From Candidatus Limnocylindrales bacterium (GTDB taxonomy: Bacteria > Chloroflexota > Limnocylindria > Limnocylindrales > CSP1-4), in assembly GCA_036520795.1 (NCBI GenBank), contig DATDJA010000089.1:1-34154 (forward strand): DNA of 34,154 nt, read 5' to 3'. Every line of letters begins with the position of its first letter. The first letter of the stretch is position 1. Positions 2,450-19,788 of this stretch are shown here, piece by piece. A program made the position numbers and the translations under genes. The notes beneath the pieces are model-generated. The model was not told the DNA's origin. It did not search any database and was given only the letters and a program-made list of their open reading frames with translations.

Positions 2450-2451
2450 GG

Positions 2452-2850: not shown

Positions 2851-2861
2851 GCGCGTTTCTC

Positions 2862-4523: not shown

Positions 4524-4531
4524 GGCGTGAT

Positions 4532-5269: not shown

Positions 5270-5278
5270 GGCCGGCCC

Positions 5279-5764: not shown

Positions 5765-5776
5765 CGGTCCTCCCTG

Positions 5777-7732
5777 CTAGAACGAATCGAACGTGAGGCC
5801 CTTGGCCTCGCGCTCGTGGATGACTTCCGCCTTGAGCTGGCCGCGGATGCGCCCGAACAGCTGCTTGGCCAGCTCGTCCAGCTCCCGGTCGGACCGGCCG
5901 GCACGCTCGGGCGTGGCGCCTGGGGCCGGGGCCTCCTCGCGCTGGACGATGGGCGTCGCGGTGAAGGTGGCGACGGGGATACCGCCGCCGGCAGACGATG
6001 TCTGGACGACTGGCGGGGCTCCGGGCGACGCAGGATCGGCGACGATCCGGGCCACGACCGGCATGGCGGCCGCGGGCGTGGGGGCCGGCGCGGGTGTCGG
6101 TGCAGCGGCGACGGTCCGCGCCAGCGAGAGTGGCGTCGATGCCGGTCGAGCAGGGGAGGCCGGCCGGGGGGCGGTCGTCGCCGGCTGGGCTGGGAGGGTC
6201 GTCGGCACCGGCCAGCCACCAGCGTCGCCGACCGTCGGCTGGCCGCCGAAGTCGGGGGCGGGGAAGACGATCTCGCGCGGCGCGGGCGTGGATGGCCGTT
6301 GCATCGCCGCGCCAGCGGGCGCGTCCTGGATCGCCGACAGCTGGACCGGCAGCACGCGATCGGCGGTCGGCGATGCCGAGAGGGAAGTCACCGTAGCGGG
6401 AAGCGCGTCGCCCGAGTCCCAGCGCGCGAGGACCGGCGCCGGGGCGTCGGCGTTGGTCGCGGCGGCGCCGGCCGTGCCCGCCGCCGGGCGATCGGGCCCG
6501 ACCGTGGCGGAGGCACCGACCGAGGGACGGAGGGGCCGGACGCCGACCGTCGGCAGGACCGTGGACGCCGAGCGGGAGACGGTTGGCGCGCCGGTGGTCG
6601 GGGTGGCCCGGGCGACCGACGTCGGTGACGCCGGGGTGGTCGGACCGGAGGTCGAGGCGTCACGCCGTTGACGGGCGACCGTGAGCACCGGAAGCGGGCG
6701 CGGGGCGATCGGCGCCGCGGGGCCGTGATCGTGGCCGCGGTGCGGGTCGGCGGCCCCCGGGGCGGCGGTTGAGGCCTCCGCCGGACCGTGGCCGCCGGAC
6801 GGCTCGGACGCTGCAGCCGGTTCGACCGGCAGGCGCTGCGCCGTGGCGCTTGCCGGCGGCACAGTGATCGGGGCGCCCAGGCCCGCGCGGCGGGGCGTGG
6901 CGCCGGCCTGACGCTGGGCGGCGGGCCGCGGCGTCTCGACGGGCAGCTCCGCGAACCGACGAATCGGCGCCTGCGCGGGTCTCGCGGGATCGGGTACGCC
7001 GGTCGGCGAGGACGCGGACGCGGGGATCCGGCCGCTCGCCTGGATGGGCAAAGCGAGGTTCGCGGGCCGCGACCCGCGGCCGGGATCCGTGGGCGAGCCG
7101 GACGCGCGCGACGAGCTCACGGGGAGCGGCGCCAGCGTCGGCGAGGCCTGGGTGAGCGGCCTCGGGCTCGGCGTGACGGTCGCGGCCGGCGTCACCGGCG
7201 AGACCGTCCGGATCGGCGGCAGGTCGAGTTCGGGCGGCGGCGTCACGGTGCGCACCTCCGCGACGACGGGCGCGTCGACCGCGCGCGCGACGACGGGCGA
7301 TCCCTCGTCGGCGGCGGCCGCCGGGCTGTCCGCGGCAGGGCTGTCGGCGGAGGGGTGTCGCTGCACCTGCCTCGTCGTCAGCGGCGCACCGGACGTCAGG
7401 CTCGGGACGGCGTGGGGGTGCGCGACGACGATGCCCGCCGGCGCGACCGGACTCGACTCGTGGCCCAGCGGGCTCACGATCGGCGGCAGCGGGGCATGGC
7501 CGGGCACGGCCGCCAGGAACGGCGCGGCGGGCGCGACCACCGGCGGCGGACCTGCCGTTCGCTGGATGGGCGGCAGCGTTCGCCAGGCTCCCGTGGGCGG
7601 GATCGGCGCGGGGACAGGCGGGGAGGCCGGCACCGCGTCGGTGACGCCGGCACCGGCGTCACCGGAGGTCGAGGACGCCCCGTCGTCGGACGCGCTGCGG
7701 CCGAACGGCCACGGCAGACGCACGGGACTCAC
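5777..7732 (-). CDS. Pro/Ala/Thr-rich 651-aa protein in the tape-measure slot (Afp14-position candidate)
   Basis: Lies between the chaperone-like pair and the second tube gene. Almost entirely low complexity (P, A, T, S, V) except the C-terminal ~45 aa, RSDRELDELAKQLFGRIRGQLKAEVIHEREAKGLTFDSF. The GTG start overlaps the upstream TGA (GTGA at 7729..7732). Confidence 0.6.
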   Translation of the reverse strand: MSPVRLPWPFGRSASDDGASSTSGDAGAGVTDAVPASPPVPAPIPPTGAWRTLPPIQRTAGPPPVVAPAAPFLAAVPGHAPLPPIVSPLGHESSPVAPAGIVVAHPHAVPSLTSGAPLTTRQVQRHPSADSPAADSPAAAADEGSPVVARAVDAPVVAEVRTVTPPPELDLPPIRTVSPVTPAATVTPSPRPLTQASPTLAPLPVSSSRASGSPTDPGRGSRPANLALPIQASGRIPASASSPTGVPDPARPAQAPIRRFAELPVETPRPAAQRQAGATPRRAGLGAPITVPPASATAQRLPVEPAAASEPSGGHGPAEASTAAPGAADPHRGHDHGPAAPIAPRPLPVLTVARQRRDASTSGPTTPASPTSVARATPTTGAPTVSRSASTVLPTVGVRPLRPSVGASATVGPDRPAAGTAGAAATNADAPAPVLARWDSGDALPATVTSLSASPTADRVLPVQLSAIQDAPAGAAMQRPSTPAPREIVFPAPDFGGQPTVGDAGGWPVPTTLPAQPATTAPRPASPARPASTPLSLARTVAAAPTPAPAPTPAAAMPVVARIVADPASPGAPPVVQTSSAGGGIPVATFTATPIVQREEAPAPGATPERAGRSDRELDELAKQLFGRIRGQLKAEVIHEREAKGLTFDSF

Positions 7733-7887
7733 TCCTCCTCGGACAGGCGCCGATTGATGCGGCCGATCTCATCCACGAACCGCAGCCGCAGCGGGTGTTC
7801 GAGGTCGAGGATGGTGTCCATCGGCCAGTGGAAGTGGTAGGCGACGTACGCGACCTCTTCAAACAGGCGGTCAGTCGCGTACGTCAC
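7729..7887 (-). CDS. Unlisted 52-codon conserved small CIS protein (second chaperone-slot ORF)
   Basis: Read by hand: (GTG)M-TYATDRLFEEVAYVAYHFHWPMDTILDLEHPLRLRFVDEIGRINRRLSEEE-TGA. 46 of 52 codons end in G/C. GTGA overlaps link it to both neighbours (7884..7887 and 7729..7732). It is probably too short for the ORF track. It resembles a short family I recall at this position in actinobacterial CIS loci, which I could not verify. Confidence 0.6.
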   Translation of the reverse strand: MTYATDRLFEEVAYVAYHFHWPMDTILDLEHPLRLRFVDEIGRINRRLSEEE

Positions 7888-8318
7888 GATTCCCCCAGGC
7901 GCTGCTCACCCGCCACGTCGACCGTGAACGCGTGATTGCACGCGGGACACGTCACCGACGCCTGCGTGTGGCCCTCCTGGTTGACGCGGCGGTAGAGGTC
8001 CTGCAGGAAGGCGAGGTCCGATGCGAACAGGCCCTCGATGACCCCGGTATGCACCTGGGGCAGCGTCCCGAGTCGGGTCACGACCCGGGACAGCAGCAGG
8101 ATCGTCAGGTAGGCCTCGTTCTCGCGGACGCGAGGATCCCGCTGGGGGATGATCTCGTCGCGCGCCGTCGCGAGGCGCATGACGCCGTCGCGATGGACGG
8201 TGCCGGACCCGTCGACGAAGCCGCGCGGCAGCACGAACGCGTATTCCGTCCGGAGGGCGTCGGACGCGTTCGTGCCAAGGCGCTCGGCACCGAGCTCGGG
8301 CAGGAGTGCGGTGGTCAT
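7884..8318 (-). CDS. Tail assembly chaperone-like protein (P2 gpE-position)
   Basis: 144 aa, directly downstream of the tube gene. YAFVLPRGFVDGSGTVHRDGVMRLATARDEIIPQ resembles gpE/gp41/gp14-type chaperones. A CPACNH motif lies near the C-terminus. Confidence 0.55.
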   Translation of the reverse strand: MTTALLPELGAERLGTNASDALRTEYAFVLPRGFVDGSGTVHRDGVMRLATARDEIIPQRDPRVRENEAYLTILLLSRVVTRLGTLPQVHTGVIEGLFASDLAFLQDLYRRVNQEGHTQASVTCPACNHAFTVDVAGEQRLGES

Positions 8319-8322
8319 CGAC

Positions 8323-8757
8323 CTAGCCCTTGACGAGCGTCTCGCAGGCCAGGGTCGCCTCCTCGATCTGGACGCCGCTGGTCGTGGCGCCGCCCTCGGA
8401 GAGGCTGATCTTGGACACCATCGCGTTGGTGAAGTTGTAGCGCAGGATCTCCTCGCCGATGGTGTTCATGAGGATCACCGAGCCGTTGCGACGGTCCGGG
8501 TTCCCCTGCATGACGGCGGTGTGCCAGTCCCAGATCTCGGTCGCCCCGGTCAGGCCCCGCTTGAGGGTGACCGTCGGGGTCTTCGGCTTGCCCGGGAGCT
8601 TGCCGATGGTGACCTTGCCCTGGTCGTTGACGAACGGGTTGTCGACGATCTCCACCTCGCTCGAGACGCCCGAGACCGAGGTGAAGTTGGCGACGACGCC
8701 GACGCCGTCGATGTCCAGCAGGACGTTGCCTTGCAGCAGCGGATCAGTCGTGGGCAT
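8323..8757 (-). CDS. Major inner tube protein (Afp1/Pvc1-like, gp19 fold)
   Basis: 144 aa. VLLDIDGVGVVANFTSVSGVSSEVEIVDNPFVNDQGKVTIGKLPGKPKTPTVTLKRGLTG...WDWH. GGAGG lies upstream of the ATG. The gene is immediately downstream of the sheath gene. Confidence 0.9.
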   Translation of the reverse strand: MPTTDPLLQGNVLLDIDGVGVVANFTSVSGVSSEVEIVDNPFVNDQGKVTIGKLPGKPKTPTVTLKRGLTGATEIWDWHTAVMQGNPDRRNGSVILMNTIGEEILRYNFTNAMVSKISLSEGGATTSGVQIEEATLACETLVKG

Positions 8758-8796
8758 GCGAGCCTCCGTGGCCTTCCGTTTGCGTGGTCATGACGG

Positions 8797-10299
8797 CTAC
8801 TCGGCGTCCGGCGAGCCAGAGAACTGGGCGATCCGGAACACCACGAACTCGGCCGGCTTCACGGGCGCGATGCCGATGTCGATGATCAGCTGGCCGGCAT
8901 CGCGGACCTCGGGCGGGTTGTTCTCCTCGTCGCACTTGACGAAGAACGCCTGGTCGGGCGTCGCGCCGAACAGCGCGCCGTCACGCCAGACCCGCAGCAG
9001 GAACGCGTTGATGGTCCGCTTCACGCGGCCCCACAGGCGCTGGTCGTTGGGCTCGAAGACCACCCACTGGGTGCCCTCGAAGATGGACTCCTCGATGTAG
9101 TTGAACAGGCGCCGCACGTTGAGGTAGCGCCAGGACGGATCGCTCGAGATCGTCCGCGCGCCCCACACCCGGATGCCGCGACCGGGGAAGGCCCGGATGC
9201 AGTTGATTCCGTTGGGGTTGAGCTGGTCGTGCTCGGCCTTGGTCAGGTTGAGCGCGAGGCTGATCGCGCCCCGAACGACCTCGTTGGCCGGCGCCTTGTG
9301 GACGCCGCGGGTGTCGTCGTTGCGGGCCCAGATCCCGGCCGTGTGGCCGGACGGCGGCACGAACTTCGCCTGGCCGGACAGGGGGTCGAAGACCTTGATC
9401 CAGGGCCAGTAGAGGGTCGCGTACTTGCTGTCGTAGCCGGCCTTGTCGACCCGCCACTCCTTGACCTGCTGGGCGTTGAGCCCTGGCGGCGCGTCGAGGA
9501 TGGCGACGCGATCGCCCATCAGCTCGCAGTGGGCGATCATCGCGAGCTGGACGGCCTGGAGGCCCTCCAGATCGATCATGCCCTGCTCGTACACGGCCAT
9601 CAGGTCGGGCACGGACAGCATGGTGACCTCGTCGACGGCCTCGAGTCCGGCGAAGCCGGTCCGGTCGGACGAGTTGCCGACGTAGTCGTCGGGGGTCAGC
9701 CGGGACGGGGCGGCCGCGCTGCCGCCGACGAGGGCGGTCGAGCCGGCGGCCGGCGCCAGGGCGCCGACGTCCTCGATGGTGATCGTCTTCGACTGCGCCT
9801 TGACGACCGTGGCGACGTTCTGCTTGCCGCGCGCCGTGCTGACGTTGTCGAAGGTCTCGACCTCCTTGCCGCCGCGCTTGACGACGAGCTTGAAGTTGCC
9901 TTCCTCGCCCGCGGGCTGGACGTCGATGCTCAGGTCATTCCCTTCCGGACCCGCCTCGAGGGCGGCGACGCGGAAGGCCGGCTTGGCCTTGTCCGTCGAG
10001 CTCGGCAGCTCGGCGCTCGCGGTCGGCGCAACGCCGTCGGCGCCGACGCGCACGACGTACGCGGCCCCGCCACCGTTCAGGAAGTAGCCGTAGATGGCAT
10101 GTGCGAGGTACGAGCCTTCGATGAAGTCGCCGAAGGTGGACGTGAACTGGTTCCAGTTCGTGACCAGGGTCGGCGCGTTGGCCGGCCCGCGAGCGGCCAG
10201 TCCGACGAACGCGGCGACGGCCGTTCCAACGCCCTCGATCGGACGGGACCCGGCCTCCACCTCCTCGACGTAGACGCCGGGCGAGAGATAGTTCGGCAT
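8797..10299 (-). CDS. Contractile tail sheath protein (Afp2/Pvc2-like)
   Basis: The track ORF runs to 10347, but the internal ATG at 10299 gives MPNYLSPGVYVEEVEAGSRPIEGVGTAVAAFVGLA, the canonical sheath N-terminus, preceded by GGAAAGGG. The C-terminal part contains INCIRAFPGRGIRVWGARTIS. Confidence 0.92.
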   Translation of the reverse strand: MPNYLSPGVYVEEVEAGSRPIEGVGTAVAAFVGLAARGPANAPTLVTNWNQFTSTFGDFIEGSYLAHAIYGYFLNGGGAAYVVRVGADGVAPTASAELPSSTDKAKPAFRVAALEAGPEGNDLSIDVQPAGEEGNFKLVVKRGGKEVETFDNVSTARGKQNVATVVKAQSKTITIEDVGALAPAAGSTALVGGSAAAPSRLTPDDYVGNSSDRTGFAGLEAVDEVTMLSVPDLMAVYEQGMIDLEGLQAVQLAMIAHCELMGDRVAILDAPPGLNAQQVKEWRVDKAGYDSKYATLYWPWIKVFDPLSGQAKFVPPSGHTAGIWARNDDTRGVHKAPANEVVRGAISLALNLTKAEHDQLNPNGINCIRAFPGRGIRVWGARTISSDPSWRYLNVRRLFNYIEESIFEGTQWVVFEPNDQRLWGRVKRTINAFLLRVWRDGALFGATPDQAFFVKCDEENNPPEVRDAGQLIIDIGIAPVKPAEFVVFRIAQFSGSPDAE

Positions 10300-10484
10300 G
10301 CGTTGCCCTTTCCGGATGCAGGGATCCCGATGACGTGACCGTCCCACCCAATCGAGGGCCGAACAAGGCCCGAGAGGGCGCGCGGGAGGGCGGGCGCCAT
10401 TGCCCGAAGGGGCGACCAGCGGTGCCCGGACGGATGCCCCGCGACCGACTGGCGCCGCGGCCCGGCTGAACCGACGATCGGTGG
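10300..10484. promoter_or_regulatory. Divergent intergenic region between the sheath operon and the cap/ATPase operon
   Basis: 185 bp is the only sizeable non-coding gap inside the CIS block, and it is flanked by divergent starts. I could not pick out clear -10/-35 elements. It contains a GGGATCCC palindrome at 10321..10328. Confidence 0.4.
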
Positions 10485-11210
10485 GTGATCTACGACGTCG
10501 ATCAGCTGCTCGAGAAGCTGGTCAAGCGCGACGCGCTCAACGGCTCGTCCGTCGACCTCGTGTTCGACGCGCCGACCAAGGACTGGGTCGCGCGCAGGAG
10601 CGGTCCCGCGGTCGACCTGTACCTGTACGACATCCGCGAGGACATCGCGCGCCGCGTGCCCGCGTGGGAGGACGTCCGCGACCCGGGCGGCACCGTGACC
10701 CGGCGCCGGCAGCCGCCGCGGCGCTTCCGCCTCGCCTATCTCGTCACGGCGTGGACGCAGCGGCCCGAGGATGAGCACCGCCTGCTGTCCTCGTTGCTCG
10801 CCTGCTTCCTGCGCAACCCGATGATCAAGCCCGAGGACCTCGACGACCCCCTGAACGAGGCCGACCTGCCGGTCTACCTCGAGGTCGCCCAGCCACCCAG
10901 CCAGGAGCGGTCGCTGGCCGACGTGTGGTCCGCCCTCGGCGGCGAGCTCAAGCCATCGCTGGACCTCGTGGTCGTGGCCCCGATGGTGGTCGACTCGAGC
11001 ACCTACTTCGGGCCGCCGATCCAGGAGGGACCGTCGATCGGCATCGCCTCGACCAACGGCGCCAGCGAGCGCCGCAGCGGCGGCCGCAAGGCCGAGGGAC
11101 CGCTCGAGATCGAGCCGTCCACCACCGAGCTGCTGCCGGCGAACGCGGGCGCGAAGGACGGCGGGGTCAGGCTCCGTGTCAGCGGCGTCCGGCGCCCGCC
11201 GCACCGATGA
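10485..11210 (+). CDS. DUF4255 / Pvc16-Afp16-like tail terminator (cap) protein
   Basis: 241 aa. VDLVFDAPTKDWVARRSGPAVDLYLYDIREDIARR...RRFRLAYLVTAWTQRPEDEHRLLSSLLACFL is the characteristic DUF4255 core. Confidence 0.88.
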   Translation: MIYDVDQLLEKLVKRDALNGSSVDLVFDAPTKDWVARRSGPAVDLYLYDIREDIARRVPAWEDVRDPGGTVTRRRQPPRRFRLAYLVTAWTQRPEDEHRLLSSLLACFLRNPMIKPEDLDDPLNEADLPVYLEVAQPPSQERSLADVWSALGGELKPSLDLVVVAPMVVDSSTYFGPPIQEGPSIGIASTNGASERRSGGRKAEGPLEIEPSTTELLPANAGAKDGGVRLRVSGVRRPPHR

Positions 11211-11217
11211 CCGGGCG

Positions 11218-13335
11218 ATGAGCCGGGCCGCGCCGGCGAGCGCGGAACCCGAGCTCGGCTCGCCGGACCCGTCCCTGCGCTACCTGCTCGGGCGGCTGTC
11301 CCTGGTCGAGCGCCTGGTGCGGTCCGCGGTGGATCGCCGCCGCGCCGTCGACGCGGATCCCGGCGACCGGTTCCGTGGCCTGTACATCTCGGACGAACAG
11401 GTCGACGGGCTGCTCGACCACGCCTCTGGACCGCTCGTCCCGCAGGTGGACGAGGCCGACCTCACCTTGCGCGCGGCCCTCGAGGCGCGCGCGTCCGAGG
11501 AGGAGCAGGCCGGCGCCGGGCTCCGGCTGCGCACGATGGCGCGCGCCTTCGATCTCGAGCCGATCGACGTCGAGCTCCTGCTGATCGCCCTCGCGCCGGA
11601 CCTCGACCCGCGCTTCGAGCGCCTGTACGGCTACCTCCACGACGACGTCTCGCGCCGGCGCGCGAGCGTCGGCCTGGCGATCGAGCTATGCAGCCCCGCG
11701 GCCGCCTCGGACGGCGCCCGGATCCGTGCGCGGCTGGGGCCCATGGCGCCGCTGCTGGCGGGACGGCTGCTGCTCATCGAGGACGTCGACCGCCCGTCGC
11801 TCACCCGCCCGCTGCGGGTCCCGGATCGGGTCACGGCCCACCTCCTGGGCGACGACAGCCCGGACCCCGTCGTGGAAGCGCTGCTCACCCCGTCGGTGGC
11901 CGTCGAGGTCGACGAGGTCGACGTCGTCGCGCACGGACTCAGGGCCGGCCTCGGGCTCGTGTACGTCCGGGAGCGCCCCGGCGCCTCCGGCCAGTCGCTT
12001 GGCCTCACGGCACTCGCGCGCCTCGGCCGTCCGGCGCTCGGGCTCGACCTCGGGCGGATGGCGGCGGGCGACGATCCGGCACTCATAGCTGTTGCGGCGT
12101 CCCGCGAGGCACGGCTGCGCGGCGCCGGGCTGGTCGTCGGGCCGGTCGAGCCGCTCGTGGAGCGCGGTGCGACGGCCGTCCGCGCGTTCGCGGAGCTGCC
12201 GGGTCCGGTGATCCTGGTCGGGGGGCGTGACTGGGACCCCGCCTGGTCGCGCGATCCGCCGCTCGTCGTGGACGCGCCGGTACCGGCGCTGGCGACCCGC
12301 CACGACCTGTGGGTCACCTCGCTCAACGGCGACCAGCCCGAGGGCTTCGACCCCGCCGCGGCGACGATCGCCTTCCGGCTCACGCCCGAGCAGATCGACC
12401 GGGCCGCCCAGGCCGCCCGCCACGCCGCGACGGCCGCCGACCGCACGATGACCGTGGCCGACGTCGCGGCCGGCGCGCGTGCCCAGAACGCCGCCGGCCT
12501 CGAGCGCCTCGCGCGACGGATCGAGCCCTCCGTTGCCTGGAAGGACCTCGTGCTGCCGGGGGTCGTCGAGGCCCAGCTGCGCGAGCTCACCGCCCGGGCC
12601 CGGCACCGCGACCGCGTGGTCGGGGAGTGGCGCATGGGCACGACCGGCGCGCGCGGGATCGGGATCACGGCCCTGTTCGCCGGCGACTCCGGGACCGGCA
12701 AGACGATGTCGGCCGAGGTCGTTGGCCACGACCTGGCGCTCGACGTCTACGTGATCGACCTCTCGACGGTCGTCGACAAGTACATCGGCGAGACCGAGAA
12801 GAACCTCGACCGGATCTTCACCGAGGCCGACCGAGTCAACGGGATCCTGCTGTTCGACGAGGCGGACGCGCTGTTCGGCAAGCGTTCGGAGGTCAAGGAC
12901 GCCCGCGACCGGTACGCGAACGTCGAGGTCGCCTACCTGCTCCAGCGGATGGAGCGCTTCGACGGCGTCGCGATCCTGACGACCAACCTGCGTTCCAACG
13001 TCGACGAGGCGTTCGTGCGGCGGCTCGACGCGATCATCGACTTCCCGATGCCCGAAGAGGAGCACCGGCGGCTGCTGTGGGAGCGCAACCTGGCGCCCGA
13101 GCTCCCCGTGCAGGACGGCATCGACCTCGACTTCCTCGCCCGCCGATTCAAGATCTCCGGCGGCAACATCCGCAACGTGTGCGTGACCGCCGCCTACCTG
13201 GCCGCCGCCGCCGACCGCCCGGTCAGCATGGCCGACCTCGTCCGCGCAACCGAGCGCGAGTACCGCAAGCTCGGCCGGCTCACCGTCGAGGCGGAGTTCG
13301 GCGAGTACTACGACCTGGTCACGGCCACCGAGTGA
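11218..13335 (+). CDS. AAA+ ATPase (Afp15/Pvc15-like CIS assembly/cargo-loading ATPase)
   Basis: Walker A is FAGDSGTGKTM. Walker B is ILLFDEADALFGKR. The second region of homology is AILTTNLRSNVDEAFVRRLD. The ATG at 11218 is chosen here, but the in-frame GTG at 11176, which overlaps the cap gene, is also possible. Confidence 0.92.
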   Translation: MSRAAPASAEPELGSPDPSLRYLLGRLSLVERLVRSAVDRRRAVDADPGDRFRGLYISDEQVDGLLDHASGPLVPQVDEADLTLRAALEARASEEEQAGAGLRLRTMARAFDLEPIDVELLLIALAPDLDPRFERLYGYLHDDVSRRRASVGLAIELCSPAAASDGARIRARLGPMAPLLAGRLLLIEDVDRPSLTRPLRVPDRVTAHLLGDDSPDPVVEALLTPSVAVEVDEVDVVAHGLRAGLGLVYVRERPGASGQSLGLTALARLGRPALGLDLGRMAAGDDPALIAVAASREARLRGAGLVVGPVEPLVERGATAVRAFAELPGPVILVGGRDWDPAWSRDPPLVVDAPVPALATRHDLWVTSLNGDQPEGFDPAAATIAFRLTPEQIDRAAQAARHAATAADRTMTVADVAAGARAQNAAGLERLARRIEPSVAWKDLVLPGVVEAQLRELTARARHRDRVVGEWRMGTTGARGIGITALFAGDSGTGKTMSAEVVGHDLALDVYVIDLSTVVDKYIGETEKNLDRIFTEADRVNGILLFDEADALFGKRSEVKDARDRYANVEVAYLLQRMERFDGVAILTTNLRSNVDEAFVRRLDAIIDFPMPEEEHRRLLWERNLAPELPVQDGIDLDFLARRFKISGGNIRNVCVTAAYLAAAADRPVSMADLVRATEREYRKLGRLTVEAEFGEYYDLVTATE

Positions 13336-13356
13336 AGGTGCTCATGGAGACGTCCG

Positions 13357-14088: not shown

Positions 14089-14095
14089 GGGACGG

Positions 14096-14776
14096 TCAGG
14101 CTGGTGCGACGGCGGTCGCCGACATCGCGACCGGGATGAACACCCCGCCGTCGTCGACGATGAAGGTCACCGTGGCCGTAACCTTGTCGCCGGCCTCGAG
14201 CACCGGCAGCTCGGCCGTCGTCTCCGCGTCCCAGCCGGGGCCGGCCTCGACGCGCCCGAGATCGAACCCGGCCAGGGCATTGGCCGGGTTCTCCATCCCG
14301 CGCCAGACCGCGACCTTGGCACGCCCCGACGCGAGCTCGACTGGGAGCGTCCCGGTGCCGCGCTGGACCAGGCGGATCCGCGCGCGTCCGTCCGTCAGCC
14401 CGACCTCAAGCGCGATCGCCGCAACGGGCGCATCCGTGCGCGCATCGGCGATCCGCCGGCACGCCGCCAGCAGGTCGCCCCACGGCGGGTCGGCCTCGGC
14501 GCCCGCCTCGAAGACCGACCGTGCGCCGCCAACCTCGAGCTGCTCCACGCTGGCGTCGGCCGGCAGCGACCCGGGCCGCGGCGCGGCCGCCGACCCGACG
14601 GCCGACACCAGCCCCTCGAGCTCCGAGACCACCCCGGCCGGGAGCGACCCGCCGAACCGGCCGACGACGGGCGCGATCGACCGCCACAGCCGGAACGAGC
14701 CGTCGGCTTCGACGTCGAGGAGCTCGCGTTCGGGCGGCGGCATCGACGACAGCCGCCGCCACGTGACCAGCGTCAT
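14096..14776 (-). CDS. Protease-associated partner protein A (candidate inhibitor/immunity or loading adaptor), paralog of 19060..19788
   Basis: The internal ATG at 14776 forms an ATGA overlap with the stop of the upstream protease (14773..14776). The product begins MTLVTWRRLSSMPPPERELLDVEADGSFRLWRSIAPVVGRFGGSLPAGVVSELEGLV and aligns with partner B. The track ORF 14096..15325 has a spurious N-terminal extension. Confidence 0.75.
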   Translation of the reverse strand: MTLVTWRRLSSMPPPERELLDVEADGSFRLWRSIAPVVGRFGGSLPAGVVSELEGLVSAVGSAAAPRPGSLPADASVEQLEVGGARSVFEAGAEADPPWGDLLAACRRIADARTDAPVAAIALEVGLTDGRARIRLVQRGTGTLPVELASGRAKVAVWRGMENPANALAGFDLGRVEAGPGWDAETTAELPVLEAGDKVTATVTFIVDDGGVFIPVAMSATAVAPA

Positions 14777-16497
14777 CGTGGCCCCGACGTCCAGGTGAGG
14801 TCTGGGTAGGCGCCGCGGACGATTCGCACGAACTCCTCGAGGTGCCGGGGCTCGACGGCGTGGTCGTGCGGCGTCACGCCGCCCAGGACCTCCGGGTTGC
14901 CCATGATGCTCCGGCTGGCGTACGAGAACACCGACTGGATCGTCCACTTGCTGCCCTCGGGCAGCTTGTCCCGCATCGCCTGGACCAGCGACTTGGAGAA
15001 CCAGCCGTCGTACTTGTCGTTGTACGCGGTCTGGACCTCCTGTGCGAAGTCGCCCTGCTGGGGGACGCCGCCGACGATGAGGCCGACAGCGGTCAGGAGC
15101 GTCGTCGCCGTCGGGGCGCGCTGGGTCGCGTCGCGCAGGTACAGCGCATTGTGGAGATCGACGGCGATCTCGGCCGCCGTCTTGCCCGAGGCGTTGGCGG
15201 GGCCGGTGATGTCCTGGCCGGTGATCTTCTTGTAGTCGCCGTGGGTCCGCTGGTACTCGTCCTGGAGGCCGATGAGGTGGCCAAACTCGTGCGGCGCGGT
15301 CGTGGCGTCCATGAGCGGGAACCACATCCCGGCGTTCGCCCGGTCTTCCACCGACTGCGTGCCCGGGACCTTGTTGTCCTTCACCCGGATCGACTTCTCG
15401 GCGCCGGACCGGTTCTCGATCCCGAACCGGATCGGGATCTTGAGCCCGCCTGTCTCGACTGCGGCGAACTTGTTCCAGACCGTGTCGATCTGGGACTGCC
15501 AGGTGGCGATCGGCGCTGTCACGCCGGCGTCGGGCTTGAAATCGACCGGGACCCGGACGGTGAGCTCGCGCTGCTGGAGCACGTACTCGAACCGGCCCTG
15601 GACGGTGGTCGTCTCGCCCTCCGTCATGTGCTGGTCGATCTCGTTGGTGAAGGTCCCGGCCGCCTGGACCTGCAGCAGGTCGAGCGCCTTGCGCAGGTCG
15701 CTGCCGCTGAGCTCGTCCTGCAGGTCGCGGTCGAGGTGGTTGCCGGTCAGCGCCAGGTACTCCCGCTGGATGGCCAGGATCTCCTCGGGCTCACGACCCG
15801 TGAGCGCGTTGAAGATCTCGTCTTCCTCGGTGCCCCAGCCCGCCATCGCCTCCTTGAGGTGGACGGCGGTGACCTTCGCCCGCTCGGTCGCGGCGGTCGC
15901 CCGTTCGCCCTCGGTGAGGGTCGACTCGTCCGCGGTCGGTGCCATCGACTGGGTGACGCGCGCGAGCTCGGAGTCGTTGAGCTCGTCGCGCAGCTCCGCG
16001 TCGAGGTCCTTGTTGGCGACGCTCTTGTAGGCCTTGCGGATCTCGTCCATGTCGGCGGCCGTCCGGCCGGCGAGCGCGCCGTAGATCGCCTCTTCGTCGG
16101 TACCCCAGCCGCGCATCGCGTCGTCGAGGCGCCGCGCGATCTGGGTCGCCTGGTCCGGGGAGACTGCGCGCTGCACCGTGAGTCCCGGCCCGGCCGTCCC
16201 GCCGGCGGGCGTGCGCTGGAGGGCCTCGACGGTTGCCCGGTTGCCCGCGGTCGCCTGGAGGTCGACCACGCCGGCCGGATCGAGGACGCTCGCCTCGATG
16301 GTCGATGCGCTCGCCGCGAGGGGCCCCGCCGCCGGCTCCAGCGTGAGCCGGGGCCCGCCGGTCGCGGGGGCGGCGGCAGACGACCGGCCGGCCGGCGATC
16401 GCGTGGCGCGGGTCTGCATGCCGGCGATCGTATCGACGTGCCCCGGGATCGGGCTGCCCATTGGGGCAGACTTCCGGGCGGTCGTGGCCGAGGCCAT
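14773..16497 (-). CDS. Annexin-repeat / metzincin-like zinc metalloprotease fusion (CIS cargo candidate A)
   Basis: The N-terminal ~115 aa are low complexity and carry the DLQATAGNRATVEALQR motif. Two annexin repeats follow (GWGTDEEAIYGALAGRTAADMDEIRKAYKSVANKDLDAELRDELNDSEL and GWGTEEDEIFNALTGREPEEILAIQREYLALTGNHLDRDLQDELSGSDL). The zinc site is APHEFGHLIGLQDEY, with a candidate Met-turn at SRSIMG. No Sec signal peptide. Alternative starts at 16461 and 16419. Confidence 0.88.
   Translation of the reverse strand: MASATTARKSAPMGSPIPGHVDTIAGMQTRATRSPAGRSSAAAPATGGPRLTLEPAAGPLAASASTIEASVLDPAGVVDLQATAGNRATVEALQRTPAGGTAGPGLTVQRAVSPDQATQIARRLDDAMRGWGTDEEAIYGALAGRTAADMDEIRKAYKSVANKDLDAELRDELNDSELARVTQSMAPTADESTLTEGERATAATERAKVTAVHLKEAMAGWGTEEDEIFNALTGREPEEILAIQREYLALTGNHLDRDLQDELSGSDLRKALDLLQVQAAGTFTNEIDQHMTEGETTTVQGRFEYVLQQRELTVRVPVDFKPDAGVTAPIATWQSQIDTVWNKFAAVETGGLKIPIRFGIENRSGAEKSIRVKDNKVPGTQSVEDRANAGMWFPLMDATTAPHEFGHLIGLQDEYQRTHGDYKKITGQDITGPANASGKTAAEIAVDLHNALYLRDATQRAPTATTLLTAVGLIVGGVPQQGDFAQEVQTAYNDKYDGWFSKSLVQAMRDKLPEGSKWTIQSVFSYASRSIMGNPEVLGGVTPHDHAVEPRHLEEFVRIVRGAYPDLTWTSGPR
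15253..15294. repeat. 42-nt segment, inverted near-copy of 18476..18517 (zinc-site codons)
   Basis: The reverse complement ccgcacgagtttggccacctcatcggcctccaggacgagtac matches 18476..18517 at 39 of 42 positions. All 3 differences are synonymous third positions. Confidence 0.9.
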
Positions 16498-16549: not shown

Positions 16550-17251
16550 ATGCGCGATTTCGAGTTGGAAGCCGCCCGCGGCGTCCCGATTGCACCGGAG
16601 CGTGACCTGCCCACGCCGGCGACGGCCGAGTCAGCCCCGGTCGCCCCGGGTCGCTCGCCCGCGCTCGACGCGGCGACGCTGATGCACCTGCAGCGGACCG
16701 CCGGCAATGCCGGGGTCGTGCAGATGCTGGCGGGCGAGGATGAGCAGGTTTCGCCGGTCCACGACGTAGTCGGGTCGGGCGGCGGCTCGGCGCTCGACGC
16801 CGGGACCCAGTCGACGATGGAGTCGGCGTTCGGCCAGTCGTTCGACAACGTCCGCGTCCACACCGACGACCAGGCGTCGCAGTCGGCGGAGTCCGTCGGC
16901 GCGAACGCCTATACGGTCGGCTCGGACATCGTGTTCAAGAGCGGCCAGTTCGATCCCGGCAGTGCATCGGGCCAGAAGACCATCGCGCATGAGCTGGCCC
17001 ACGTCGTCCAGCAGTCGCGTGGGCCGGTCGACGGTTCGGAGGCGGCCGGCGGCATCCGCGTCAGCGACCCGTCGGACCGCTTCGAGCGCGCCGCCGACGC
17101 GACCGCGGAGCAGGTGATGGCCTCGGTCTCGTCCTCGCAGCCGTCCGCGTCGGATGCCGGCGCGCTGCAGCGGGAGGAAGACCCGCTGTCCGCCCCCGCC
17201 GCCGTCCAGCGCGAGGCGCTGCCCGAGGAAGAGGAAGAGCCGGGGAGCTGA
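16550..17251 (+). CDS. DUF4157 (eCIS-associated HExxH) domain protein
   Basis: ATG at 16550 with a perfect AGGAGG SD. The N-terminal motif is MHLQRTAGNAGVVQMLAG. The DUF4157 core is LDAGTQSTMESAFGQSFDNVRVHTDDQASQSAESVGANAYTVGSDIVFKSGQFDPGSASGQKTIAHELAHVVQQ. The tail is acidic (EEEEEPGS). The track ORF start at 16178 lies inside the opposite-strand gene. Confidence 0.88.
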   Translation: MRDFELEAARGVPIAPERDLPTPATAESAPVAPGRSPALDAATLMHLQRTAGNAGVVQMLAGEDEQVSPVHDVVGSGGGSALDAGTQSTMESAFGQSFDNVRVHTDDQASQSAESVGANAYTVGSDIVFKSGQFDPGSASGQKTIAHELAHVVQQSRGPVDGSEAAGGIRVSDPSDRFERAADATAEQVMASVSSSQPSASDAGALQREEDPLSAPAAVQREALPEEEEEPGS

Positions 17252-17254
17252 TCG

Positions 17255-19060
17255 ATGGCGGGCCCGGGCGCGCAACGCGTCCAGCACGGAGACGATCGCC
17301 AACCGGGGGAACGCGGCGGCACCGCCGACCTGGCCCCCGGTCGCGACGACGCGGTCGACCTCGGCGCGATCGGGGCGGGCCCGCGCCGGCTGCCCGTGCA
17401 CGCCGCCTCATCGATGGTCGTCATGGCGCTCCAGCGCAGCGCGGGCAACGCCGCCGTGCAATCGCTGCTCGGGCCTCGCCCCTCGCTCCGCCTCCAGCGC
17501 GACGACGCGCCCGGGGCGACGCCCGTGGCCCCCGGAGCCTCGGGCGCCGGGGCCGCCGCGGCGCCGGCCCCACCCGCGAGGACCGCCCTCAACCCCGGCG
17601 ACTCGAGCGTCGAGGTGGGGGAGCTGCAGCAGGCGCTGAACGCGCTCGGCGCGGCGGTGCCGCCGCTGCGGATCACGGCGCTGTACGGCCCCGAGACCAC
17701 GGCCGCGGTGACCGCGTTCCAGGCGTCGCACCCGCCGCTCATCCCGGACGGCATCTGCGGCCTGCCGACGTGGGCGAAGGTGGACGAGCTCGCCCCGCGC
17801 GTCTCGCGCCAGGGACGCAGCGTCGTCGAAGGCCCGGCCGAGGGCGAGCCGCGGGGGACGCCGCTCGGGGGGACCATCCACCCGACGGTGCGCCGCACGT
17901 CGACCGGGCCGGCGGTCGAGGAGCTGCAGCAGAAGCTCAACACGATCCCGTCCGACCAGGTACCGACGCTGCTCGACGTTGACGGCAAGTTCGGTCGGAT
18001 CACCCGGCAGGCCGTGATCGAGTTCCAGCAGTCCCGAACGCCGCCGCTCGTCGCCGACGGCGTCGTGGGGCCGTTGACGTGGTCCGCGCTCGACGCGGTG
18101 GCAGGCCCGGTGACCGTCGGCCGCGAGTCGTTCGACTGGGAGCAGCGAGCCGAGGGCACGATCACCGGGGGCCCGTCGCGGTTCACGTGGCGCCTCCTCG
18201 ACGACAAGCTCCAGGTGACCGTGAACCTGCGCTTCACGGGGTCGCCCAGCCACCCGCGCGTCGCCCAGTGGCGTACCGACATCACGAGCGTGTGGAACAC
18301 GTTCCGGTTCGAGAACCCCGACGACCCCGGGCACCCGCTGGACCTCGAGTTCGTCGTCGGGACCGGGACGCCCGCCGACGCGTCCGTGGCGGTCGTCGTG
18401 ACCCCGGCCGGGACGACCCCCGGGCGCTCGGACTCGGCGAACTGGCACACGGGCGACACGGACCCGGGGCTCGCGCCGCACGAGTTCGGACACCTCATCG
18501 GGCTCCAGGACGAGTACAACCGGGCACCGGAGCAGTACGCGGCGGTGACCGGCGAGCAGGCGCCGATCGGCCGGGTCGATGCCCCCCTCGACGCGGCCGG
18601 CAACCCCGTGGCCCCCGAGGTCATTGCGGCGGAGATGCGCACGGCGGTCACGGGGGCGGCCGCCGGCCGCGGCGCGGCGGCGCGGGCGGTCGTCACGAAG
18701 TACAGCCTCCGCCAGGGCGCCTTCAGCCAGCGCATCGCCCTCGCCTACGAGACCGCGAACGCGGGCAGCATGCTGCGCGAGGACTTCGGTCCGGCCGGCT
18801 TCGTGATCGTCAACGACCCGGCCGGGACCATGGGCAACGACGTCGCGGCGCGGATTCCGGGCCAGTTCGACACCGCCGGCAACGAGGCGGTGGCGGTCGA
18901 GCCGTTCCTGTACAGCAACCGCGGCATCATGGGCACCATGGCCAGCCTGAACTCGCCGATCAGCGCACATGACCACCCCGTGGCCGAGCGGCACGTGCGC
19001 CACTTCCGGGACATCGTCCGGCGGAACCGGCCCGGCACGTGGCGGACGGTCCGGCGCTGA
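17255..19060 (+). CDS. Peptidoglycan-binding-domain / metzincin-like zinc metalloprotease fusion (CIS cargo candidate B)
   Basis: The N-terminal motif is MALQRSAGNAAVQSLLG. Two PG_binding_1-like domains are present (VEVGELQQALNALG...YGPETTAAVTAFQAS...DGICGLPTWAKV and PAVEELQQKLN...VDGKFGRITRQAVIEFQQS...DGVVGPLTWSAL). The zinc site is APHEFGHLIGLQDEY, with a candidate Met-turn at NRGIMG. The C-terminal ~290 aa are paralogous to protease A. Confidence 0.88.
   Translation: MAGPGAQRVQHGDDRQPGERGGTADLAPGRDDAVDLGAIGAGPRRLPVHAASSMVVMALQRSAGNAAVQSLLGPRPSLRLQRDDAPGATPVAPGASGAGAAAAPAPPARTALNPGDSSVEVGELQQALNALGAAVPPLRITALYGPETTAAVTAFQASHPPLIPDGICGLPTWAKVDELAPRVSRQGRSVVEGPAEGEPRGTPLGGTIHPTVRRTSTGPAVEELQQKLNTIPSDQVPTLLDVDGKFGRITRQAVIEFQQSRTPPLVADGVVGPLTWSALDAVAGPVTVGRESFDWEQRAEGTITGGPSRFTWRLLDDKLQVTVNLRFTGSPSHPRVAQWRTDITSVWNTFRFENPDDPGHPLDLEFVVGTGTPADASVAVVVTPAGTTPGRSDSANWHTGDTDPGLAPHEFGHLIGLQDEYNRAPEQYAAVTGEQAPIGRVDAPLDAAGNPVAPEVIAAEMRTAVTGAAAGRGAAARAVVTKYSLRQGAFSQRIALAYETANAGSMLREDFGPAGFVIVNDPAGTMGNDVAARIPGQFDTAGNEAVAVEPFLYSNRGIMGTMASLNSPISAHDHPVAERHVRHFRDIVRRNRPGTWRTVRR
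18476..18517. repeat. 42-nt segment, inverted near-copy of 15253..15294
   Basis: ccgcacgagttcggacacctcatcgggctccaggacgagtac matches the reverse complement of 15253..15294 at 39 of 42 positions. Confidence 0.9.
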
Positions 19061-19788
19061 TGGGCGAACCGAGCGAGGCGCTGGTCCGGTACCGGCGGAC
19101 CGGCGGGCGACCCCCGAGCGACGACGAGGCCCTCGACGTCGCGGACGACGGGTCGTTCACCGCGCGCCGGACGGTCGCCGGCGCGCGGGTCGGGACCTTC
19201 GCGGGCCGGCTGGCGTCCGGGCGCGTCGAGGCGCTCCGCGAGGCCGTCGACGCGGTTCGCGACGCGCATGACGTCCAGGTCGCGACGCCGCTCGACGGCG
19301 CGACCGAGGTGCTCGAGGCGGGCGGGCACACGACACGGACGGGCTCCAACGAACGCCCGACGGACCCGTGGAAGGCGCTCGTCGAGACCGTGCGTTCCAT
19401 GCTCGACGAGGACGCCGTCGCCGATCCGCTGGCGGCGATCGAGCTCACGGCGACGTCCCGCGAGGCCGCCCTCACTCAGGCCGGGCCGGCACCGGTCGAG
19501 ATCGACCTCGGGTCGGTGACGCTGCGCGTGGTCCGGATCGACACCGCAGGGCTCGTGCTCGGCCGGTGGCAGGCGCGGCTCCAGGACGCGGGCGACGAGG
19601 ACACCGCCGAGCCGCCCCCTGCGTGGACATCGGCCGCCGCCGGCTGGCGAGCGACCCTCCCGTTCTCGCACGGGCTCGAGCTCGCGGACGGCGACTGGCT
19701 CCAGGTGTGGGTCTTCGCGACGATCCGGGATGCCGCCGGCGACGGCGGCGAGCGCGCCGCCCGCCTGTTCGTCGCCGTTCCCGGATGA
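19060..19788 (+). CDS. Protease-associated partner protein B (candidate inhibitor/immunity or loading adaptor), paralog of 14096..14776
   Basis: ATG 19060 overlaps the protease TGA by 1 nt (TGATG). The product begins MGEPSEALVRYRRTGGRPPSDDEALDVADDGSFTARRTVAGARVGTFAGRLASGRVEALREAV. Shared blocks with partner A are LV..RR...PP...E.LDV..DGSF, VG.F.G.L, E.LE.GG and DPW..L...P.AAI.L. Confidence 0.75.
   Translation: MGEPSEALVRYRRTGGRPPSDDEALDVADDGSFTARRTVAGARVGTFAGRLASGRVEALREAVDAVRDAHDVQVATPLDGATEVLEAGGHTTRTGSNERPTDPWKALVETVRSMLDEDAVADPLAAIELTATSREAALTQAGPAPVEIDLGSVTLRVVRIDTAGLVLGRWQARLQDAGDEDTAEPPPAWTSAAAGWRATLPFSHGLELADGDWLQVWVFATIRDAAGDGGERAARLFVAVPG

Follow-up and report, generated by a model that had tools for sequence, protein, structure and literature searches.

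The locus and its genes

Here we describe a gene that joins two annexin repeats to a zinc-protease-like domain and that lies beside a CIS locus in a Candidatus Limnocylindrales MAG. The window, by which we mean the whole stretch of DNA analysed, is 34,154 nucleotides long, and the Pfam matches within it bear out the CIS neighbourhood that the original prediction had given to this gene. The genes discussed below are as follows.

503..13335, both strands: CIS structural and assembly genes from Pfam matches, with baseplate J, gp25, VgrG-like spike, LysM-tube, two tube genes, a 651-aa tape-measure-like gene, a DUF6760-like ORF and the sheath on the minus strand, and a Pvc16_N cap and AAA+ ATPase on the plus strand
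7729-7887, minus strand: the small DUF6760-like ORF
14096..14776, minus strand: partner gene 1, 226 aa, coupled in translation to the annexin-protease gene through an ATGA stop/start overlap
14773..16497, minus strand: annexin-protease gene, an ORF of 574 aa counted from the first ATG
16550..17251, plus strand: divergent eCIS_core (DUF4157) gene, PF13699 at E=1.1e-31, with LQRTAGN at nt 16688; its start is set from orthologues of 212-237 aa
17255..19060, plus strand: paralogous protease of 601 aa, in which a pair of PG_binding_1 domains (PF01471 in two stretches, E=2.9e-24) replaces the annexins, and with LQRSAGN
19060..19788, plus strand: partner gene 2, 242 aa, coupled in the same way to the PG-binding protease through a TGATG overlap

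The annexin-protease is identical to P0001 (VIZ22_02565, from a Candidatus Limnocylindrales MAG), and the NCBI call for it is 548 aa long, starting at Met27 (nt 16419). The GC3 of the gene is 0.94. Homologues number 214 at E<=1e-5, and the conservation counts given below were taken from 81 aligned homologues (alignment A3); a scan of the genome collection with the annexin-protease as a single-protein query returned three close Chloroflexia MAG loci only. A signal peptide and a TM segment were searched for in the protein, and none was found. In the AlphaFold2 model of the full-length protein (mean pLDDT 83.4), a disordered N-terminus is followed by the two annexin repeats and then by a protease-like domain of about 295 aa, and the placement of the repeats between a disordered N-terminal tag and the protease is borne out by the model and its pLDDT values. 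The features of the protein, in order from its N-terminus, are these.

16162..16497, minus strand: N-terminal region, residues 1-112, mostly disordered, a candidate cargo-loading sequence
16240..16260, minus strand: LQATAGN motif, residues 80-86, within a predicted helix (74-95)
15946..16158, minus strand: annexin repeat 1, residues 114-184, five helices, Pfam 47.5 bits and E=1.9e-12
16099-16110 and 15982-15984, minus strand: Ca site of repeat 1, G-W-G-T (130-133) and Glu172
15676..15912, minus strand: annexin repeat 2, residues 196-274, five helices, Pfam 48.8 bits and E=7.6e-13
15829-15840 and 15712-15714, minus strand: Ca site of repeat 2, G-W-G-T (220-223) and Glu262
14776..15669, minus strand: zinc-protease-like domain, residues 277-574
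15253-15291, minus strand: zinc motif HEFGHLIGLQDEY, residues 403-415, HExxHxxGxxDEY
14929..15177, minus strand: helical insert, residues ~441-523, like a degenerate annexin repeat that lacks G-x-G-T
14899-14910, minus strand: S-I-M-G, residues 530-533

Annexin repeats and their calcium sites

Two annexin repeats had been called from the letters of the span 15673-16146 (minus strand), which corresponds to residues 118-275 of the 574-aa ORF, and the identity of both was confirmed by Pfam, phmmer, AlphaFold2 and Foldseek alike. Pfam Annexin (PF00191) matches the whole protein at E=9.5e-25 (86.9 bits, two stretches), and when the repeats were scanned separately, each scored above the gathering cut-off of 25 bits. 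Searching PDB sequences with phmmer gave annexins only among the 60 matches listed, the best being annexin VI (E=1.6e-36) and annexin A4 (E=4.8e-22), and repeat 1 is 44% identical (32/72) to repeat 1 of annexin A4. In the AlphaFold2 model, 10-residue blocks within the repeats have pLDDT values of 80-97, and repeat 2 begins with a long first helix (196-218). The best 50 Foldseek matches in the PDB are all annexins or annexin fusion constructs, with probability 1.00 and E down to 2.7e-9; alignments to whole annexins have an rmsd of ~29 A and TM of 0.12-0.25, and the match is one of repeat to repeat, not of a rigid body. A rigid arrangement of the two repeats with the insert, in the manner of an annexin core, was considered and is unsupported by this rmsd from the full-length Foldseek comparison. 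Nor was the four-repeat curved disc of the canonical annexin core found, the protein having two canonical repeats and a possible degenerate third in the protease domain.

Each repeat carries the type II Ca-site pattern that was to be checked, GxGT with an acidic residue further on, here a Glu at +39 from the Thr (E172 in repeat 1, E262 in repeat 2). In repeat 1, G130, G132, T133 and the acidic residue at +39 are each present in 81/81 homologues; in repeat 2, the same holds for G222, T223 and the acidic residue, with G220 in 76/81. At the tip of the loop, Trp or Leu is found in 74/81 homologues in repeat 1 and in 63/81 in repeat 2; the wider set of Leu, Trp, Ala or Val accounts for 80/81 in repeat 2. 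Both repeats here have Trp at this position, as does repeat III of annexin A5. With the Ca-site residues so strongly conserved, the natural reading of the sequence is that the annexin pair would hold the C-terminal domain to a membrane in a Ca-dependent manner, and from the annexin sequence and fold we infer Ca2+-dependent binding of anionic phospholipid.

The eukaryotic annexins A4, A5 and A6 (PDB 2zhi, 1avr, 1avc) share with these repeats the five-helix fold, the type II Ca2+ site of G-x-G-T and an acidic residue at +39, and 35-44% identity per repeat. Whereas theirs is a disc of four repeats, there are only two canonical repeats here, separated by a linker of ~30 residues that extends helix A of repeat 2, with a CIS-type N-terminus fused on one side and an enzyme on the other. 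Used alone as a query, the annexin pair finds 1813 clusters (50% identity) at E<=1e-3, which makes the description of annexin repeats as rare in bacteria out of date for this module. An eCIS_core/DUF4157 domain occurs in 15 of the 62 nearest relatives of the pair that were scanned, with toxin domains in others, and annexins of the same type are fused in relatives to unrelated M35, PLD, ADP-ribosyltransferase and RelA/SpoT toxin domains. The nearest repeats outside the family, ~50-54% identical, come from multi-annexin proteins of metagenomes, and an eCIS_core domain is present in at least one of these; annexin A4 stands at 44% and carp annexin A6 at 32-35%. Recent horizontal transfer from eukaryotes was dropped as the default origin in view of these nearest repeats, and a recent eukaryotic acquisition is not indicated by the sequence comparisons.

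A membrane-directed role for the annexin domains of PVC-delivered toxins was proposed already in 2012 (Zhang, Aravind et al.; PMC3482391), annexin proteins of Haliangium and Microscilla were treated by Kodavali et al. in 2014 (PMC3894181), and Annexin PF00191 was listed as eCIS-enriched by Geller et al. in 2021 (PMC8213781). As in the PVC/eCIS polymorphic toxins, the annexin module here precedes an enzymatic toxin domain at the C-terminus (a metallopeptidase in some of those toxins), and both are tied to phage-tail-like injection loci with a PVC-metallopeptidase/DUF4157 association. In contrast to those toxins, DUF4157 is here encoded by a neighbouring gene of its own; an unclassified zincin at the C-terminus takes the place of Peptidase_M90 (anthrax-LF-like) or Ntox3; the annexin module is interchangeable or combinable with PG_binding_1; and there is a dedicated coupled partner gene in a Chloroflexota (Limnocylindria) MAG. 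Zhang et al. described a single annexin domain; the present protein has two repeats in tandem, and the Ca sites of both are fully conserved. Annexin-bearing cargo of injection machines is already known, and the present gene is a new and well-defined example of it. In the literature that we consulted on bacterial annexins, we found no experimentally assigned function for them.

The zinc-protease-like domain

The C-terminal domain is modelled with confidence (pLDDT 89.7) and has the combination typical of metzincins, HExxHxxGxx(H/D) with a Met downstream. All of HExxHxxGxxDEY (including H403, E404, H407, G410 and D413), M532, G533, H544, H546 and H552 are invariant (81/81), and HExxHxxGxxD is present in 120/120 homologues among the matches listed. 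The same motif and downstream Met are shared with metzincins that use Asp as the third ligand, namely snapalysin (MEROPS M7, PDB 1c7k), IgA peptidase M64 and fragilysin/MMPs, where the motif reads HExxHxxGxxD(E/H)Y, and to fragilysin and MMPs there is also a weak resemblance of fold. Unlike any of these, the domain has a long N-terminal beta-sheet and a helical, annexin-like insert of ~85 residues.

No peptidase family reached threshold in Pfam/NCBIfam scans of the annexin-protease and 18 family members. The best sub-threshold matches were M64 (E=0.0023), M6 (0.0069) and M7 (0.021), each covering no more than ~20 residues at the motif. When a family profile was run against PDB sequences, the lowest E for this domain was 0.11, and Foldseek of the protease model against PDB and BFVD gave nothing better than E=0.025, with TM<=0.3, the weak matches being fragilysin and MMPs in the PDB and, in BFVD, MMP-like proteins of viruses together with an ascovirus protein. 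Assignment to M7, M64, M6, fragilysin or MMPs was dropped, the resemblance being sub-threshold and at the level of the motif. The term metalloprotease in the original prediction stands as far as HExxHxxGxxDEY and the invariant Met carry it, as a motif-based description to which no Pfam/NCBIfam family corresponds above threshold.

With the protease-only model as query, the insert matches annexin (Sm)1 in Foldseek (4mdv_A, prob 0.90, rmsd 2.6 A over 84 columns), as well as other annexins. By hhalign against a profile of 401 annexin repeats, it aligns in register with P=1.2e-4 and a probability of 56% (P=0.0017 in a first test). These comparisons are suggestive of a degenerate annexin repeat (441-523) built into the catalytic domain.

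Cargo status and the N-terminal motif

The gene has several marks of CIS cargo: a complete CIS cluster with an AAA+ ATPase surrounds or adjoins it, its product has a disordered N-terminus with a motif common to its neighbours, and an eCIS_core gene is adjacent. DUF4157 is a marker of eCIS toxins (PMC8213781), and cargo loading in AlgoCIS needs disordered N-terminal loading sequences (preprint 10.64898/2026.05.27.728243). Here, pLDDT falls below 50 at residues 1-69 and 91-109, and a hydrophobic segment was looked for in residues 1-112 and not found. Between the two disordered stretches lies LQxxAGN, which in the whole window occurs in three adjacent genes only (the annexin-protease and those with the motif at nt 16688 and nt 17429). 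It is highly conserved, with Q81 in 77/81 homologues, A84 in 79/81 and G85 and N86 each in 80/81, and is retained in CIS-distant homologues.

The order of the CIS genes is identical in loci L001, L002, L008 and L011; the same cargo cassette is found in L001, L002 and L008, and its position between the AAA+ ATPase and a LuxR regulator is conserved in several CIS loci. Where both are compared on the same contigs, identity is 79-85% for baseplate J and 50-59% for the annexin-protease, the cargo diverging much faster. In Ilumatobacter L003/L004 and in L009, the protease-partner pair is present and no CIS gene was found within 10 kb, so either not every member is CIS cargo or the machine lies at another place in those genomes. 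In the close relative L011, no tail fibre was recognisable after the baseplate; the product of the gene after Tail_P2_I is 885 aa long, and its topology (a Zn ribbon, a disordered stretch of (PEPEPV)n, a single TM segment and then a C-terminal domain) is CisA-like.

Chloroflexota CIS have been imaged inside cells, and have been placed with those of Streptomyces in lineage IId (PMC12998442). In Streptomyces coelicolor, Sco4256-4258 (Casu et al. 2023, PMC10066040) are likewise three adjacent effector genes in a CIS cluster, with a similar N-terminus, and were proposed to be 'cell envelope-targeting effectors' that act on the envelope after firing. Their C-terminal envelope-directed module is a ricin-type carbohydrate-binding domain, whereas here it is an annexin or PG-binding module. 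The likeness is one of architecture: the Streptomyces proteins have a TM helix and no enzymatic domain, while the protein described here has no TM segment and a zincin domain, and its membrane attachment would be peripheral and Ca-dependent.

Partner genes and the paralogous cassette

A member of the partner 1 family lies directly downstream of the protease homologue in every context inspected, with or without a nearby CIS, at 37-40% identity across these contexts. Its 55 relatives in a homologue search are hypothetical proteins, none with a Pfam domain, and neither Pfam at E<=10 nor a profile search against PDB sequences gave anything credible for partner 1 itself. A suspected likeness of its N-terminus to emfourin, the protealysin inhibitor, was set aside as unsupported by the Pfam, PDB-profile and homologue searches. 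The partner is also found on contigs that encode members of the protease family lacking the annexins. PADLOC models of anti-phage defence found nothing among the six cassette proteins.

On the other strand, the arrangement is repeated. The protease domains of the annexin-protease and its paralogue are 27% identical (E=6e-18, residues 289-569 against 296-596), partners 1 and 2 are paralogues with 37% identity (E=7e-14), and the paralogous partners track the paralogous proteases. In some relatives, two annexins, two PG_binding_1 domains and the protease are found in one chain. The partner is most likely an inhibitor or immunity protein that keeps the protease harmless in the producer's cytoplasm, or an escort that brings it to the machine. 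It is cytoplasmic, without an export signal, which fits an inhibitor acting before loading and not classical immunity against a toxin that acts on the envelope.

Discussion

We favour, with moderate confidence, the reading that the gene encodes a protease carried as CIS cargo, which calcium would tether to anionic membrane at the bacterial cell envelope. The disordered N-terminus and LQxxAGN helix would most likely direct loading into the CIS, probably helped by the AAA+ ATPase of the locus. Once delivered, the annexin pair, with its type II Ca2+ sites and Trp loop tips, would most likely act as a Ca2+-dependent clamp on anionic phospholipid, while the C-terminal zincin, with Asp as presumed third ligand and a conserved Met, would most likely cleave a protein or peptide substrate at the membrane; we infer both the activity and the substrate of this domain. 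Given a paralogue with peptidoglycan-binding domains, and hybrids that carry both modules, the most likely site of action would be the bacterial envelope, where the cytoplasmic membrane meets the wall and external Ca2+ is available. This could be the envelope of the producer itself, if its CIS resembles the cytoplasmic, self-lysing CIS of Streptomyces and Roseiflexus, or that of a neighbouring bacterium. Against this reading, the fold of PG_binding_1 is also that of MMP propeptides, so the module of the paralogue could be a prodomain instead of a wall anchor. The original prediction had left the target as either eukaryotic or the inner leaflet of a bacterial membrane; the PG-binding paralogue and the hybrids favour a bacterial envelope over the eukaryotic cytosol, and a eukaryotic target is the less likely.

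A more speculative and rather unlikely extension would make calcium the switch of a self-directed weapon. The protease would be soluble, partner-bound and loadable in a cytoplasm low in Ca2+; once the cytoplasmic CIS has fired through the membrane of its own producer, the cargo would meet external Ca2+ and clamp onto the anionic outer face, the sister protein would grip the wall, and envelope proteins would be digested, resulting in regulated cell death in a filamentous Chloroflexota. Should this hold, a bacterial annexin would for the first time have a functional role, and there would be a mechanistic handle on killing by cytoplasmic CIS. The effectors of Streptomyces/Chloroflexota-type CIS are poorly understood, and this family, with more than 200 sequence clusters in metagenomes, has readable modules (loading motif, Ca/lipid clamp, wall anchor, zincin and coupled partner) that can be tested singly. 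It is a tractable route to the site of action of CIS cargo and to the ligands of bacterial annexins. That injected toxins can carry annexin as an accessory domain had been published before; what is gained is a good model family and not a new principle.

That the particles are instead released and inject a protist, fungal or animal cell, in which the annexins would bind phosphatidylserine or PIP2 of the inner leaflet and position the protease, we regard as unlikely. It was the first option of the original prediction and is also that of Geller et al., who placed Annexin among eCIS-enriched 'mostly eukaryotic' domains and predicted that such domains mark effectors directed against eukaryotes (PMC8213781). 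The repeats are indeed strikingly close to those of animals (44% identity to annexin A4 repeat 1, E=1.6e-36 to annexin VI), but the peptidoglycan-binding domains of the paralogue and hybrids would have no ligand in eukaryotic cytosol, and no tail-fibre gene can be recognised after the baseplate in the close relative. Calcium also counts against a eukaryotic target, the resting level in the cytosol being low. Moreover, the Chloroflexota CIS of the related lineage have been seen only inside cells (PMC12998442).

Perhaps the protein is freed in the cytoplasm of the producer or a target bacterium and is recruited to the inner leaflet where a CIS puncture admits Ca2+, as eukaryotic annexins are at wounds. 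Annexins need Ca2+ far above the resting level of the cytoplasm, which would suit a response to puncture, and the Ca sites are intact and the partner protein cytoplasmic. A cytoplasmic mode of action has also been proposed for the related CIS lineage (PMC12998442, PMC10066040). Such homing would, however, leave the peptidoglycan-binding modules of the sister protein and hybrids unexplained, and we think it no likelier than a eukaryotic target.

Quite improbable, in our view, is that the protein is not CIS cargo at all and belongs to an autonomous protease-partner module located beside CIS loci, for example an envelope protease, non-classically released or lysis-associated, with its inhibitor. 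The pairs that have no CIS genes within 10 kb (L003/L004, L009) would fit this, as would a partner family that tracks the protease and not the CIS; yet in several CIS loci the cassette keeps its place, flanked by the AAA+ ATPase and the LuxR regulator, the N-terminal motif is common to the DUF4157 gene and persists in CIS-distant homologues, and the annexin-protease has no secretion signal.

It is very improbable that the annexin pair is an intramolecular prodomain, a Ca2+-controlled regulator of the protease or an easily unfolded spacer for tube loading, even with an apparent annexin-like insert beside the active site that hints at annexin-protease contacts and a full-length model that is confident throughout, since conservation is concentrated on the lipid/Ca loop (G-x-G-T, acidic +39, hydrophobic tip) and the fusions of annexins to M35, PLD, ADP-ribosyltransferase and RelA/SpoT argue for a generic targeting role.

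Annexin repeats and their calcium sites

The original prediction of two annexin repeats at 15673-16146 on the minus strand falls within an open reading frame of 574 aa at 14773-16497 (-), annotated by NCBI as VIZ22_02565, whose coding frame is marked by a GC3 of 0.94. We refer to its product as the annexin-protease. Pfam Annexin (PF00191) matches this protein in two stretches with E=9.5e-25, and taken one by one the repeats reach 47.5 and 48.8 bits, where the cut-off is 25. The 60 matches listed in a phmmer search of PDB sequences are exclusively annexins, headed by annexin VI (E=1.6e-36), and repeat 1 is 44% identical to repeat 1 of annexin A4. In an AlphaFold2 model built from 81 homologues (mean pLDDT 83.4), each repeat forms five helices, residues 1-69 and 91-109 are disordered, and the best 50 Foldseek matches in the PDB are all annexins or annexin fusions at probability 1.00. 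Both repeats also carry G-W-G-T with a Glu at +39 from the Thr, the type II Ca2+-site pattern. The predicted pair of repeats is borne out, and the annexin identity is beyond chance.

In eukaryotic annexins, the G-x-G-T loop, the acidic residue at +39 and the loop-tip residues provide Ca2+ binding and bilayer contact. Their conservation across 81 homologues, which are 43-86% identical to the annexin-protease, argues from the alignment that selection acts on exactly the Ca2+-binding and bilayer-contacting residues of both repeats.

Conservation of calcium-site positions among 81 homologues
First Gly of G-x-G-T: repeat 1, G130, 81/81; repeat 2, G220, 76/81
Second Gly and Thr: repeat 1, G132 and T133, 81/81; repeat 2, G222 and T223, 81/81
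Acidic residue at +39: repeat 1, 68 Glu and 13 Asp; repeat 2, 41 Asp and 40 Glu
Loop-tip residue: repeat 1, Trp/Leu in 74/81; repeat 2, Leu/Trp/Ala/Val in 80/81

Origin of the annexin module

A full HMMER scan of the annexin pair alone against 1.84 billion representatives returned 1813 clusters at E<=1e-3. When the 62 nearest relatives (at most 1250 residues each) were scanned with Pfam, eCIS_core/DUF4157 was found in 15, Aspzincin_M35 in six, and PLD, ADP-ribosyltransferase and RelA/SpoT domains in one each. The nearest repeats outside the annexin-protease family, at about 50-54% identity, come from metagenomic multi-annexin proteins, and P0122 is the only Pfam-checked protein with such nearest repeats to contain eCIS_core. 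This company of toxin and eCIS_core domains, together with the metagenomic source of the nearest repeats, places the module in a bacterial pool of toxin and cargo domains, as far as sequence comparison can tell. The pair is also unusually close to animal annexins: beside the value for annexin A4, identities are 32-35% to carp annexin A6 and 28-32% to a Nematostella protein. These repeat identities gave us no indication that the module was taken up recently and privately from a eukaryote.

The C-terminal domain and its insert

Residues 277-574 form a confident domain (pLDDT 89.7 when modelled alone), in which all 81 aligned sequences retain HEFGHLIGLQDEY, Met532-Gly533, His544, His546 and His552. 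The consensus is metzincin-like and, as in snapalysin, has an Asp as third ligand. Only sub-threshold matches were obtained in Pfam (M64, M6 and M7, E 0.002-0.02), the family profile reached snapalysin among PDB sequences at a sub-threshold E=0.11, and Foldseek against the PDB and viral models likewise stayed below threshold (E>=0.025, TM<=0.3), led by fragilysin and MMPs in the PDB, and in the viral library by an unnamed ascovirus protein followed by MMP-like proteins. Since all comparisons of family and fold fall below threshold, we call the domain an unclassified zincin, with putative protease activity.

A helical insert (residues ~441-523, window 14929-15177, minus strand) separates the active-site helix from the Met. 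Foldseek matches it to annexins (4mdv_A, prob 0.90, 2.6 A over 84 columns), and in hhalign the insert and a profile of 401 annexin repeats align in register (P=1.2e-4, probability 56%). Control segments gave short 12-column matches only, and the one at P=0.012 lies within the control's overlap with the start of the insert and is the same helix match. The insert has no G-x-G-T, and these comparisons are suggestive of a degenerate third annexin repeat that lacks the Ca loop.

The CIS locus and its probable cargo cassette

By Pfam content, the window encodes a complete contractile injection system (CIS), which the following cassette adjoins:
503-13335: CIS genes, namely baseplate J, gp25, VgrG-like spike, LysM-tube, two tube proteins, sheath, Pvc16_N cap and AAA+ ATPase
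14096-14776, minus strand: partner 1, 226 aa, downstream of the annexin-protease
14773-16497, minus strand: annexin-protease
Divergent from the annexin-protease, plus strand: eCIS_core/DUF4157 protein
17255-19060, plus strand: paralogous protease in which two PG_binding_1 domains take the place of the annexins
19060-19788, plus strand: partner 2, 242 aa, 37% identical to partner 1
Last gene of the cassette, minus strand: LuxR regulator

The protease domains of the two paralogues are 27% identical (E=6e-18), and each protease gene overlaps its partner gene, through ATGA for partner 1 and TGATG for partner 2. By eye, the PG-binding paralogue has a helical region equivalent to the insert. A 52-aa ORF at 7729-7887 (-), shorter than the default ORF length filter, lies between the second tube-like gene and a 651-aa tape-measure-like gene, and its position and length match those of the DUF6760 mini-gene that is called in relatives. 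A 243-aa Ala/Arg-rich ORF (13357-14088, plus strand), for which no family matches were found, separates the AAA+ ATPase from partner 1; this slot holds a 461-aa gene in the related locus L001 and is empty in L002 and L008, and is therefore variable.

All three cargo-like proteins carry [L/I/V/M]-Q-x-x-A-G-N in their N-terminal regions, encoded at 16240-16260 (-), 16688 (+) and 17429 (+) in adjacent genes, and the motif was found in no other ORF of the 34-kb window. LQxxAGN is nearly invariant in the 81-homologue alignment of the annexin-protease family and recurs in a few unrelated annexin proteins of other architecture (P0130, P0148, P0236 and P0242), where it precedes the first of the annexin repeats by ~40 residues. 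The motif is a candidate CIS loading signature.

Relatives and module exchange

Of the 214 clusters homologous to the annexin-protease, most consist of two annexin repeats plus protease. Some members have three or four G-x-G-T repeats by motif count (Pfam gave two or three annexin stretches in the three of these that were scanned), some have no annexin at all, and a form of ~730-765 aa combines the N-terminal motif, two annexin repeats, two PG_binding_1 domains and the protease. In relatives (L008 6887-9181, P0107, P0116 and P0118), the gene position of the window's sister protease (17255-19060) is occupied by this combination of annexin x2, PG_binding_1 x2 and protease; the window copy therefore seems either to have lost the annexin pair or never to have acquired it.

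Synteny extends over the entire cassette in three further Chloroflexota-type contigs (L001, L002 and L008). The protease-partner pair is solitary in an Ilumatobacter MAG and one further contig, with no CIS genes found within 10 kb. The partner family comprises 55 clusters, in which no Pfam domains were found; it occurs on contigs of the protease family, annexin-less members included, and accompanies the protease also where no CIS is nearby. It probably acts as an inhibitor, immunity protein or chaperone. A frameshift in P0102 joins the protease to its partner.

Where both genes lie on one contig, identity to the window copies is 79-85% for baseplate J (window 503-2449, minus strand) and only 50-59% for the annexin-protease; the payload changes far more quickly than the injection machinery, which is what an effector should show. 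Across metagenomes, conservation of baseplate J is extreme: the best 120 of 7858 clusters (E<=1e-20) are all 78-100% identical.

Relation to published work

Zhang et al. 2012 described annexin domains that precede a metallopeptidase or Ntox3 in PVC-delivered toxins, and proposed a membrane-directed accessory role for them (PMC3482391); a catalogue of bacterial annexins joined to DUF4157 and Peptidase_M90 was given by Kodavali et al. 2014 (PMC3894181); and Annexin is one of the "eukaryotic-like" domains that Geller et al. 2021 listed as enriched in eCIS (PMC8213781). The principle that headed the original prediction, annexin fused to a CIS-associated metalloprotease, is therefore already published. 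In the literature searched, we found no description of the annexin-protease family itself, its link to a Chloroflexota CIS, the unclassified zincin with its annexin-like insert, the way annexin and PG_binding_1 replace each other or occur together, the coupled partner family or the LQxxAGN signature.

Proposed mode of action

The N-terminus probably directs the annexin-protease into the CIS. In AlgoCIS, a disordered N-terminal region and an AAA+ protein are both required for cargo loading (10.64898/2026.05.27.728243), and in S. coelicolor three adjacent effectors with a common N-terminus fill the tube lumen (PMC10066040). The partner would neutralise or escort the protease in the producer's cytoplasm, and the annexin pair would clamp the protein onto anionic lipid once Ca2+ is available. 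One might speculate that the cargo is calcium-gated: the low Ca2+ of the cytoplasm would keep it inactive, and it would engage once outside. The union of annexin and peptidoglycan-binding modules in one protein points to a site where membrane and wall meet, and the site of action would be the bacterial envelope.

The type of CIS decides whether this envelope is the producer's own or that of a neighbour. Imaging has shown Chloroflexota CIS within cells, and they have been assigned to lineage IId, which also includes the self-lysing Streptomyces system (PMC12998442). A lead on the type comes from L011, a close, 97%-identical relative in which the gene directly after the baseplate genes (12816-15473, plus strand) encodes no recognisable tail fibre; from the N-terminus, its 885-aa product comprises a zinc ribbon, a disordered region with ~500 residues of (PEPEPV)n-type repeats, another zinc ribbon, a single TM helix and a C-terminal domain. 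By layout, its topology is like that of Streptomyces CisA. A similar layout is seen in the window at 23979-25040 (+), which encodes a 353-aa DZR-TM-NADase_transloc/discoidin protein.
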